NCBI GenBank assembly: GCA_041695085.1
Contig: JBGFRO010000041.1
Coordinates: forward strand, 78,245-142,244
Length of the DNA: 64,000 bases
Source: Bacteroidota bacterium
GTDB lineage: Bacteria; Bacteroidota; Ignavibacteria; UBA10030
Direction: 5' to 3'
How positions within the stretch are numbered: position 1 is the stretch's first letter; every line of letters begins with the position of its first letter. Shown piece by piece: positions 2,679-48,605 of this stretch. The position numbers and the translations under genes were made by a program. A model generated the notes under the pieces. That model worked only from the letters and a program-made list of their open reading frames with translations, ran no database searches and was not told where the DNA came from.

Positions 2679-2715
2679 CTCCTTAAATCCGATTTAGAGA
2701 GCCGTTACAACTTAA

Positions 2716-2889
2716 CTCAAGTTAACCGTCTGATCGTGTGAGGGGCTAAAGCCCCAGGAGTTTTATTGGGCTTTCCGTATCCCCGACCTAAAGGTCGGGG
2801 CTATAGCCACGTCCTTTAGGAGGTGGATAAAAATTTCAAACAATAATTTCAGGGGTTTCAACCCCTTACCCAAAAGCGGTCAACTTGAG
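2716..2889. mobile_element. 174-bp MITE/REP-cluster element nested in copy 1
   Basis: Ends CTCAAGTTAACCG / CGGTCAACTTGAG. AACTTAA is duplicated at 2709-2715 and 2890-2896 but single at the empty site in copy 3. Internal palindromes at 2742-2755, 2781-2800 and 2852-2865. Confidence 0.85.
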
Positions 2890-3078
2890 AACTTAACTTG
2901 AGCAAGCGGGAGGAGGTCGAAATCACGGCGCGCGGGTTGGAAAGCGATGGCGTGCGTTCAATTCTTGGCGCACTCCCGTCTCACGTCCATCACCTCCTTC
3001 CGCAGATGCGCCAAGAATTGTGGGTGGTGTGGAGGAACGGCCATCGCGTGCGTTTGATTTCGGCACGTTTTCTTTTGT

Positions 3079-3216
3079 GAGGCTATGCACAATGGAGGGC
3101 GAGAAGCCTTCTCGCCCACAGTGGTGTTGCGAAAACTGTCTGAATTCCGAAAACTGTCTGAATTCCTCAAAGCTCGAACTCGCACATCACGTCGATTGAA
3201 CTTTTTGCATAGCCTC
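3079..3216. mobile_element. 138-bp inverted-repeat-bounded module nested in copy 1
   Basis: Ends GAGGCTATGCACAA / TTTTGCATAGCCTC. Internal hairpin GGGCGAGAA-GCC-TTCTCGCCC and an exact 18-bp tandem duplication CGAAAACTGTCTGAATTC (3130-3165). Confidence 0.75.
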
Positions 3217-3411
3217 GAGCGGATTCTCGCGTTGCGGGTTATGACGTTCACCTCTGCGGTGAAGAAGAGTGTGTCCATTTCGAACGGATGTAGTTCTGGG
3301 AACCTACGACAGAACACGCCTCTATGTCGGAATCAAGGTCAACTTCGACACCTTGCATTTGCTGCTCATTTGGTGTAGATTTTTCCGTCCTCTCACCACA
3401 ATCATATCTGC

Positions 3412-30113: not shown

Positions 30114-30488
30114 TTACGCCTTAGGTCTCTTGGCTCCGTACTTCGATCTCCCCTGCTTGCGATCCTGAACTCCCTGCGTGTCCAGCGTGCCACGGATGAT
30201 GTGATAGCGAACGCCGGGAAGATCCTTCACTCTTCCACCACGGATCAAGACAATGGAGTGCTCCTGGAGATTGTGCCCCTCACCGGGGATATAAGCGGTC
30301 ACTTCGATTCCATTCGACAGGCGAACGCGCGCCACTTTCCGGAGAGCCGAGTTAGGTTTCTTTGGCGTCGTCGTGTACACCCTCGTGCAAACCCCCCGCT
30401 TCTGGGGGCTTGACTGAAGAGCGGGCGATTTGCTCTTCCAGAAGACTTTTTCTCGACTGTTACGGACCAGCTGATTTATCGTGGGCAA
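30114..30488 (-). CDS. rpsL: 30S ribosomal protein S12
   Basis: [30 protein letters not shown]; TTG start. Confidence 0.99.
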
Positions 30489-30527
30489 GCAGCAATGCTC
30501 CTTTAATCCTTATGAAAAAAGCCTACA

Positions 30528-30556
30528 AATATAATGGATTCGAATAGCATTGTCAA
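30528..30556 (-). promoter_or_regulatory. sigma70 promoter of the str (rpsL) operon
   Basis: TTGACA-17 bp-TATATT, 40 bp upstream of rpsL. Confidence 0.75.
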
Positions 30557-30570
30557 CATCTTTTTGATTC

Positions 30571-30752
30571 GCTCTTCCTCCACACCACCCACGATTCTTG
30601 GCGCATCTACGGAAGGAGGTCATAGACGTGATACGGGAGTGCGCCAAGAATTGAACGCACGCCATCGCTTTCCAACCCGCGCGCCGTGATTTCGAGATCC
30701 TCCCGCTTGCTCCACTTAAGTTGTAACGACTCTCTCAAAATCGGACTTGAGG
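30571..30752. mobile_element. Structured repeat element, copy 3 (about half length, opposite orientation)
   Basis: Reverse complement of about 48147-48326. Keeps one end (TCGGACTTGAGG). Flanked by TGATTC at 30565-30570 and 30753-30758. Lies between the rpoC stop and the rpsL promoter. Confidence 0.85.
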
Positions 30753-30758
30753 TGATTC

Positions 30759-48093: not shown

Positions 48094-48146
48094 GCGAAGG
48101 CAATTATAGCAAAAAACGAGATGAGATTCCGTGCTGAACTGACTTC

Positions 48147-48516
48147 GCTTAAATCCGATTTAGAGAGTCGTGAGAACTTAGGTAGAGCAAGCGGGAGGAT
48201 GTCGAAATCACGGCACGCGGGCTGAAAAGCGATGGCGTGCGTTCAATTCTTGGCGCACTCCCGTGTCACGTCCATCACCTTCTTCCGCAGATGCGCCAAG
48301 AATTGTGGGTGGTGCGGAGGAAGAGCCATCGCGTGCGTTTGATTTCGGCACGTTTTCTTTTGTGCCACTTTTCTTTTCCGAAAAGAAAAGTGGCGAGAGG
48401 ATTCTCGCGTTGCGGGTTCTGACGTTCACCTCTGCGGTGAAGAAGAGTGTGTCCATTTCGAACGGATGTAGTTCTGCGAACCTACGACAGAACACGCCTC
48501 TATGTCGGAATTAAGG
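48147..48516. mobile_element. Structured repeat element, copy 2 (370 bp, apparently uninterrupted)
   Basis: Ends GCTTAAATCCGA / TCGGAATTAAGG. Flanked by ACTTC at 48142-48146 and 48517-48521. Nested stems include AATTCTTGGCGCA/TGCGCCAAGAATT and a 31-bp palindrome at 48364-48394. Confidence 0.85.
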
Positions 48517-48529
48517 ACTTCCCTCCACC

Positions 48530-48558
48530 TTGCTTCTCTTCACGTGATGCTCTATATT
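48530..48558 (+). promoter_or_regulatory. sigma70-type promoter for the ethD-paa cluster
   Basis: TTGCTT-17 bp-TATATT. Confidence 0.55.
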
Positions 48559-48605
48559 TGTCCGTCCTTGAACCGTCCACCACGCTTCCGGAGCGATCGA
48601 TCCTT

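Follow-up and report, generated by a model that had tools for sequence, protein, structure and literature searches.

Why would a gene-less stretch of DNA, rich in nested stems and flanked by short direct repeats, recur between the genes of an uncultured groundwater bacterium, and what places it there? The question is raised by the locus at positions 48147-48516 of a 64,000-nt stretch (hereafter the window) of contig JBGFRO010000041.1 (positions 78,245 to 142,244, forward strand), part of the assembly GCA_041695085.1 of a Bacteroidota bacterium of the class Ignavibacteria (here G000; 3,894,436 bp, 50 contigs, 99.64% complete). A sequence-only reading of the window had described a mobile repeat with three copies and proposed that its secondary structure may be functional, either as a mobile non-coding RNA (ncRNA) or as a single-stranded DNA (ssDNA) substrate, and that it was not just a plain transposable element of the miniature inverted-repeat kind (MITE). 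We arrive at a different answer: the element is most likely a MITE of the IS1380 type that is inserted, in one orientation, just upstream of promoters of the -33/-7 architecture. It is thus a MITE with the ends of a family of insertion sequences (ISs), and what lifts it above a plain one is its oriented insertion beside promoters, which that reading had not seen.

Where three copies of about 370 bp had been described, a BLAST search with the 370-bp copy returns 46 loci in the assembly. Both ends are retained at 24 of these: nine copies measure 459-460 bp, four measure 370 bp, and the remainder are deletion or insertion forms of 161-466 bp together with a 658-bp copy in the window. Two fragments that seemed one-ended are deletion forms as well, of ~68 bp and ~350 bp, each with both tips and a duplication, and copy lengths across the family span 68-658 bp. 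Alignment confirms the three window copies in their places, with 90-97% identity for the main blocks. Copy 3 (48147..48516, + strand) is the basic 370-bp form and comprises a left terminal inverted repeat (TIR), a module A, a palindrome, a module B and a right TIR. Copy 1 (2681..3338, + strand; 658 bp) proved to be a composite that also holds a 172-bp repeat and a 137-bp module; its remaining blocks follow copy 3, with 91% identity between 2682-2714 and 48148-48180, 94% between 2886-3079 and 48171-48364, and 97% between 3216-3338 and 48394-48516. Copy 2 (30571..30752, - strand; 182 bp) consists of the left TIR with most of module A and lacks the right TIR, its segment 30571-30738 being complementary to 48159-48326 (90%) and to 2890-3037 of copy 1 (94%).

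The inverted ends of the family, read earlier as 12 bp and imperfect, are indeed imperfect and extend further, over ~19-25 bp. Left (CCTTAAATCCGATTTAGAGAGTCGT) and right (CCTTGATTCCGACATAGAGGCGTGT, read inward) ends are identical at 15/19 and 17/25 positions, and with up to 5 mismatches allowed to the 25-mers the assembly has 63 such ends. In copy 3 the left TIR lies at 48147..48171 on the + strand (GCTTAAATCCGATTTAGAGAGTCGT) and shares 15-17 of 19 positions with the ends of IS1380-family ISs; the right TIR, at 48492..48516 on the - strand (CCTTAATTCCGACATAGAGGCGTGT, read inward), is the end that faces a predicted promoter. The direct repeats noted beside the window copies are all exact target-site duplications: ACTTC around copy 3 (48142..48146 on the left and 48517-48521 on the right), TCAACT around copy 1 (2675-2680 and 3339-3344) and TGATTC around copy 2 (30565-30570 and 30753-30758). 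Among the 24 two-ended copies, a duplication at the TIR boundary is 5 bp long in 8 and 6 bp long in another 8; of the other 8, four show a duplication only after a shift of 1 nt and four show none.

That the family has moved can be read from its empty sites. All three window copies are absent from the orthologous sites of a genome of the same genus (G001), each of which has a single, slightly diverged target. The flanks of copy 3 align there at 84-85% and abut at C31 11774/11775, with one diverged target ATCTC; 9 bases separate the flanks at the copy 1 site, where a single TCAATT is followed by the promoter, and 8 bases separate them at the copy 2 site. The window's contig has no match to a transposase (PF01609, PF13701, PF00665, PF01797) or to a reverse transcriptase (RT; PF00078), as had been noted for the window, and the three internal open reading frames (ORFs) of the element (61-95 aa) have no Pfam match. 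Present at 46 loci, matched by an empty site for each of the window copies and devoid of coding capacity, the element is abundant, recently mobile and non-autonomous, much as the sequence-only reading supposed. Matches to it occur in 8 of 41 related genomes (G000 counted), all of the same taxonomic family. One copy in another genus (L199; G019 C34:19068-19437) is 96.5% identical to a copy of G000 (C6:36598-36967) at a non-orthologous site, whereas the flanking housekeeping DNA of the two genera is ~72-73% identical; this difference indicates horizontal spread and suggests that the subfamily passed between the genera by recent horizontal transfer. All 24 public runs listed as holders are groundwater metagenome DNA, with no RNA run among them. 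In contigs from four DNA runs the site at 48147-48516 is always filled and no joint across the element is seen, though contigs could miss a rare empty allele; in these runs the depth of the element is roughly 8-180x that of its flanks.

Where the copies land is far from uniform. In 28 of 32 right-end flanks a TTG starts at +13 to +16 from the element, and in 18 of the 32 it is followed 22-24 nt later by TAnnTT; left-end flanks have a TTG in that range in 1 of 31 cases and the full motif in none of 31, and random genome positions have them at 7.5% and 0.09%. The arrangement is that of the -33/-7 promoter type of Bacteroides, given as TTTG / TAnnTTTG in PMC9330008. Each window copy has such a predicted host promoter: at copy 3 it spans 48530..48560 on the + strand (TTG 48530-48532, TATATTTG 48553-48560), with the next gene starting at ~48606; past the right end of copy 1 the TTG lies at 3353-3355 and TAGATTTT at 3376-3383; and at copy 2, on the minus strand, the TTG lies at 30556-30554 and TATATTTG at 30533-30526. 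All three empty sites of G001 already carry the promoter motif. Placement is also precise. Copies with a 5-bp duplication have the TTG at +14 in 6 of 7 cases, and those with a 6-bp duplication at +15 in 5 of 7 and at +16 in 2 of 7, so that the edge of the duplication nearer the promoter lies 8 nt from the TTG in 11 of the 14 copies that combine an exact duplication with a TTG within range. Duplications come in two lengths, then, because this edge is held 8 nt from the TTG and the difference falls on the other side. Of 290 intergenic occurrences of a loose version of the motif in G000, 240 have a co-oriented gene next, at a median of 52 bp from the start codon. By crude ORF calls, 44 of the 46 loci lie outside ORFs. 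Where the neighbouring genes are in tandem, 27 of 31 copies share their direction (p = 3.4e-5), a bias that follows from the promoter motif lying in the right flank. Related MITEs of G019, G001, G011 and G000 show the same habit, with a TTG in 8 of 10 and the full motif in 5 of 10. Such flanks suggest that the copies lie beside promoters because the transposition machinery selects these targets.

One could instead suppose that insertion is random, or is guided by a CTTG like that in the element's own tip, and that promoter adjacency is no more than the survival of copies that spared a promoter. The TTG is in fact preceded by C in 19 of the 32 right flanks, the tip of the right TIR reads CCTTGA, so that a pseudo-end in the target is conceivable, insertions within genes would be purged, and members of the IS1380 family are said in PMC9330008 to misrecognise sequences that resemble their ends. 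Survival of this kind would have to produce a spacing that is constant to within 1 nt and an orientation that is uniform. It would also have to account for the -7 box, which accompanies 64% (18/28) of the TTGs beside the element as against 3.6% of intergenic TTG and 5.0% of intergenic CTTG (binomial p ~1e-19 and ~1e-17, respectively), a difference from which we conclude that promoters are marked and not merely a pentamer. Neutral insertions at intergenic CTTG sites outside promoters should survive, yet they are rare. We therefore regard such an origin of the pattern as quite improbable, and return to promoter-directed insertion by a transposase of the IS1380 type.

Which transposase would that be? 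Among 401 genomes of the class, 30 have the end motif CCTYRAWTCCGAYWTAGAG, with 57 matches in G000 and 16 in G336, as against 0-1 match per genome for its reversed control. Of 30 loci of the class with a PF13701 (IS1380-type) transposase, three carry the motif. The clearest is L171 (in G150, of the same class), a 1,649-bp element with ends CCTGAAATCCGATATAGG and CCTTGAACCCGATTTGGGG, which match the MITE ends at 13-15 of 19 positions; its 6-bp duplication reads TCTTGT. One TAG divides its transposase frame into 350 + 75 aa, and the frame scores 196.4 bits on the NCBIfam model NF033539 (IS1380 family transposase), for which the cut-off is 180 bits. At the two others, L169 and L178, a TIR with one mismatch stands beside C-terminal PF13701 fragments. 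A metagenome scan with the L171 protein added three relatives (86, 70 and 69% identity) with the same kind of ends, one of them a complete IS of 1,703 bp. Taken together, the ends of these ISs (L171, L228, L226 and L227) match those of the MITE at 13-17 of 19 positions, which is as close as the two MITE ends are to each other. A transposase gene bounded by the MITE's ends thus exists, of IS1380 type, in L171 and its relatives and not in G000. The IS1380 family normally makes duplications of 4-5 bp; here they are 5 or 6 bp, and the related ISs are 1.65-1.70 kb long. IS1247, a member of the family, is listed at 1,672 bp with a 5-bp direct repeat (PMC3281130, Table 2). On the strength of the shared ends, and of the size and direct repeat of IS1247, an IS1380-family DDE transposase acting in trans is taken as the probable mover of the MITE. 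From ISs such as IS1247, ISEcp1 and ISPme1 the MITE differs in having no transposase gene of its own, in the lack of any such gene found in G000, and in making 6-bp as well as 5-bp duplications. Since its ends match a catalogued IS family, the element is a MITE by the refuting condition that the sequence-only reading had set. That condition also named a fixed duplication length and no significant covariation; here the length varies and covariation is seen.

Copy 2 bears on how such a transposase might choose its ends. It stops inside the element, yet it has a perfect 6-bp duplication, is a clean insertion relative to G001 and keeps the canonical distance to the promoter motif. A later deletion stopping exactly at the element boundary is unlikely, and use of an internal pseudo-end during transposition would fit better, though the internal end of copy 2 resembles the true right end only weakly. 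The case recalls ISEcp1 and ISPme1, IS1380 elements that according to PMC9330008 misrecognise end-like sequences.

Several further loci with related ends or transposases were seen. A species-wide scan with the end pattern (79 stretches, mostly single chance matches in coding DNA) gave three loci, L013, L018 and L067, that have no end-tied transposase, and neither the two rve hits in G000 nor the DDE_Tnp_1 and rve loci of its relatives have the TIR. In G336 (16/16) and G300 (4/4), with loci L120-L141 across the two, each listed occurrence of the end motif lies less than ~120 bp from a contig end, mostly at 35-55 bp, and the sequence past it is identical at these contig ends. A high-copy element with these ends appears to break the two assemblies, and its interior cannot be recovered there because the ends lie within ~120 bp of the contig end. 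The closed genome G376, also of the class, has a different IS1380-like IS (L158 and L181 on C1; 1,636 bp, 4 copies) whose ends begin ACCTAAAAG and whose 5-bp duplication was read from the junctions; of the four copies two were examined, and a TTG, at +13, is seen beside one of them, where the -7-like box is poorly spaced; the flank of the other has none.

Oriented insertion upstream of promoters has a precedent in another superfamily. For TnGBS, ISLre2 and ISKra4-group elements, insertion sites lie 15-17 bases upstream of the -35 box of a sigma-A promoter, and the elements keep a conserved orientation (PMC3942029); the same paper puts this orientation down to the asymmetry of the two inverted repeats and proposes contact with the initiation complex. 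The MITE is alike in that 13-15 bases separate its right end from the -33 TTG downstream, always with the same end facing it, and in that its two ends differ at 4 of 19 positions. The transposases there are Mutator-like (p-MULT 3/4), whereas those associated with the MITE score as IS1380-type; the promoters there are of the -35/-10 kind, whereas here they are of the FCB-type -33/-7 kind; and the elements here are mostly non-autonomous MITEs. Because the associated transposases are IS1380-type, the MITE behaves like the TnGBS/ISLre2 elements without being one of them, and the term IS1380 does not occur in the main text of PMC3942029. A literature search over titles and abstract openings returned no report of promoter-targeted, oriented insertion for the IS1380 family and no IS1380-derived MITE, nor did it find a paper on miniature inverted-repeat elements of Ignavibacteria.

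What, then, of the structured interior? In copy 3, module A (48187..48363, + strand) contains the nested inverted repeats TGTCGAAATCA/TGATTTCGGCA, GCGATGGC/GCCATCGC and AATTCTTGGCGCA/TGCGCCAAGAATT. It is followed by the 29-bp palindrome CCACTTTTCTTTTCCGAAAAGAAAAGTGG (48364..48394, no strand assigned), with terminator-like hairpins on either side and on both strands, and by module B (48395..48491, + strand) with the short hairpins TTCACC/GGTGAA, GTAGTTC/GAACCTAC and AGAGTGTGT/ACACGCCTCT. The stems listed by the sequence-only reading are all present, and the fold is far better than chance: the 370-nt + strand reaches -152.8 kcal/mol as against -121.3 +/- 5.9 in shuffles, with z-scores of -5.35 for the + strand and -5.38 for the - strand (energy -130.2 kcal/mol).

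A hairpin-rich interior might point to an ssDNA transposon derivative, a palindrome-associated element of the IS200/IS605 type moved by an HUH/Y1 transposase that reads the hairpins. Oriented insertion would suit such an element, and G000 does have three Y1_Tnp (HUH) genes (C27:70797-71135, C45:186718-187062 and C7:66623-66889), one of them 0.8 kb from a MITE fragment. IS200/IS605 elements, though, are known to have neither TIRs nor target duplications, and this element has both, the duplications being of 5-6 bp; the same ends bound IS1380-family DDE transposase genes; and the orientation tracks the adjacent promoter. A 751-aa RT ORF also lies at G000 C31:32473-33093, 1.4 kb from a related MITE. 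HUH and RT genes are thus present in the genome, where the sequence-only reading had suggested looking for one bounded by the same ends; they lie off the window's contig, none is bounded by MITE ends, and they are probably neighbours in regions rich in mobile elements. We give the ssDNA route almost no weight.

A role of the stems at the RNA level deserves closer attention, with the element being, or carrying, a structured ncRNA gene whose stems are selected as RNA. Besides the strong fold (z about -5.4), which on the + strand is the lower in energy, its best support is covariation. In an alignment of 20 sequences, RNAalifold retains 22 pairs, and compensatory changes are seen in 7 of these. 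Across three specified helices (34 pairs) 96.1% of the cells are paired as against 89.1% in shuffles (0 of 500 as high), and 10 of the 34 pairs are changed on both sides, a number reached in 1 of 500 shuffles; when partners are slid by 1-3 columns, only 38-53% of the cells pair. The changes from one subfamily to another include ATTCTTGGCGC/GCGCCAAGAAT to ATTCCCCGCC/GGCGGGGAAT, GAAATC/GATTTC to GAAGTC/GACTTC, GCCAC/GTGGC to GCCGC/GCGGC or GCGAC/GTCGC and, judged by eye, GCGATGGC/GCCATCGC to GCAATAGT/ACTATTGC. The pairing of the interior stems is maintained beyond chance, as had been supposed. Furthermore, with 27 of the 31 copies in tandem contexts pointing the way of the genes, many would be transcribed together with them in the sense direction.

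Maintained pairing does not by itself tell RNA from DNA, and the details favour DNA. The fold z-score is the same for both strands. Departures from Watson-Crick pairing are balanced as well, with G.T at 24 positions (34 cells) and A.C at 26 positions (38 cells), counted over those 111 of the 132 minimum-energy pairs that have a Watson-Crick majority state. (A raw count of G.U against A.C in the minimum-energy structure of the + strand, 322 against 58 cells, was discarded as biased because that structure had been predicted with G.U allowed on that strand.) At gathering score Rfam finds only tRNAs in the window, and even at E up to 1 it finds nothing inside the element in L001 and L002; a simple scan gives no sigma-70-type promoter inside the element; and the promoter motif in the right flank fully explains the orientation bias. 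The commonest variant is without the palindrome, and derivatives down to 68 bp still have duplications. An ncRNA gene thus seems very improbable to us, and neither functional role that the sequence-only reading had offered for the structure, mobile ncRNA or ssDNA substrate, is supported, given equal folding of the strands, balanced departures, the lack of Rfam matches, TIRs with duplications and IS1380-like ends. We read the stems of the MITE as inverted repeats at the DNA level, which possibly bind protein or insulate.

The palindrome offers one hint of what insulation could look like. Terminator-like hairpins lie at 48347-48366 (+) and 48408-48393 (-), with the arms of the palindrome as their T-rich tails; two are found as against 0.6 +/- 0.9 in shuffles. 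The arrangement hints at a two-way intrinsic transcription stop. The palindrome occurs nine times in the genome, every time within these elements, and since the commonest variant, of 459 bp, is without it, it cannot be essential. A third copy of TTTTCTTTT lies just upstream of the terminator-like hairpins (window 48347-48408).

By its structural traits the element is an ordinary, though large and mosaic, MITE. Module A has 73-85% identity with related MITE subfamilies of G000, G019 and G011; these sister subfamilies have the left TIR, module A and the palindrome in common (73-85%) and differ in their right halves, and module B is found only in the subfamily of the 370-bp copy. The place of the palindrome is taken in the commonest variant (459-460 bp) by a 119-bp form of an inverted-repeat module, and in copy 1 by its 137-bp form (3079..3216, + strand), bounded by the inverted repeats AGGCTATGCA..TGCATAGCCT. 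This module has 40 matches of at least 100 bp in G000, alone as well as nested. The 137-bp form stands in place of the 29-bp palindrome, at the same junction, and does not split it; a simple insertion does not account for such a swap. Copy 1 also carries the foreign 172-bp repeat (2714..2886, + strand), which has three short GC-rich hairpins and is a separate small repeat family; G000 has about 6 loci of it, and G019 dozens of matches. A composite of this type, with the 172-bp repeat, is found again at C5:152095-152438, so composites either stay mobile or get duplicated. Mosaic repeats of the BOX type are built in a similar modular way, with nested repeats. Standard traits of MITEs (PMC3184786) are their long stem-loops, their TIRs and duplications, the occurrence of empty as well as filled sites and, in some, promoters, binding sites or terminator-like structures. 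With Correia/NEMIS, ERIC, Nezha, BOX, RUP and SPRITE repeats the element shares TIRs, target-site duplications, intergenic sites, empty and filled sites and long stem-loops. It differs from such structured MITEs (Correia, ERIC and others) in its larger size (370-460 bp), in an identifiable parent of the IS1380 type and in its precise placement beside promoters. On the minus strand beside copy 2, at ~30390-30560, the promoter motif TTGAC ... TATATTTG (30556-30526) is followed by only a short stretch and then, near 30395-30415, by a GC hairpin ending in a run of T. No long ORF follows on that strand, the next one being on the opposite strand, and the stretch has no Rfam match at gathering score; from its layout it may be a small transcript or leader.

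Some findings weigh against an IS1380-type MITE directed to promoters. G000 contains no pair of TIRs 700-4,000 bp apart with a duplication (71 candidate pairs, none with a target-site duplication), and its assembly has no PF01609 or PF13701 match; with no helper found in G000, the helper is inferred from other genomes. There, the transposase gene of L171 is interrupted, and the similarity between ISs and MITE is limited to the terminal ~19 nt, with module A in 0 of 39 IS-bearing loci. Only three autonomous ISs have a readable transposase-proximal flank, and these show the TTG in 2 of 3 and the full motif in 1 of 3 (L171); among the MITE's own right ends, 4 of 32 are without a TTG. The promoters are predicted ones, called from motifs by analogy with the Bacteroides -33/-7 consensus, and the orientation test took its genes from crude ORF calls. 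As for the stems, the compensatory changes come from few lineages, and in 5 related sequences helix 2 switches as one block. In DNA inverted repeats, changes that look compensatory are known to arise by mutation when a template switch 'corrects' a quasi-palindrome, and such repair, or a module swap, could mimic selection on the stems.

Setting these points beside the empty sites, the IS1380-like ends and the constant spacing to the promoter motif, we picture the life of the element as follows. Having no gene of its own, it would depend on an IS1380-family DDE transposase that acts in trans, recognises the ~19-25-bp TIRs and joins the element to a staggered cut of 5 or 6 bp. Placement would be oriented, upstream of a -33/-7 promoter (TTG, 19-20 nt, TAnnTT) and with 8 nt between the end of the duplicated target and the TTG, so that the core promoter would be left intact and the DNA upstream of it displaced by 370-460 bp. 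The mosaic interior combines the module A shared with sister subfamilies, a palindrome with terminator-like hairpins and the subfamily-specific module B; small repeats have nested in it, and internal deletions have given derivatives of 68-363 bp. The stems would most likely serve as extra protein-binding sites or in transcriptional insulation.

Promoter-directed, oriented insertion is a rare 'safe-haven' strategy that is in print for one superfamily, the Mutator-like TnGBS/ISLre2/ISKra4 elements. What is new here is that this rare way of choosing targets, already known, turns up with another transposase family and another promoter architecture. The same geometry in an IS1380-type element suggests that the two have converged on one landmark, probably the transcription initiation complex, and because the host has -33/-7 promoters it would offer a second, independent system for finding what the transposase touches. 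For genome annotation the lesson is that neither a high degree of structure nor real covariation makes an intergenic repeat an RNA gene, since it can still be a DNA transposon; equal folding of both strands and balanced wobble departures are cheap tests between the two. For the uncultured lineage, the right-end flanks of such MITEs would amount to a free promoter catalogue. A bolder proposal is that the IS1380-type transposase, unrelated to the Mutator-like enzymes, has independently evolved the reading of promoters, be it through promoter-bound RNA polymerase/sigma or through the -33/-7 architecture of the FCB group itself, and so sets its cut 8 nt upstream of the TTG; the conserved module A and the two-way terminator-like palindrome would then make the MITEs mobile insulators. 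We rate this in its entirety as rather unlikely, but if it were true, MITE insulators would isolate dozens of promoters from the transcription and the regulators upstream of them, and a non-coding element would be rewiring the regulation of its host.

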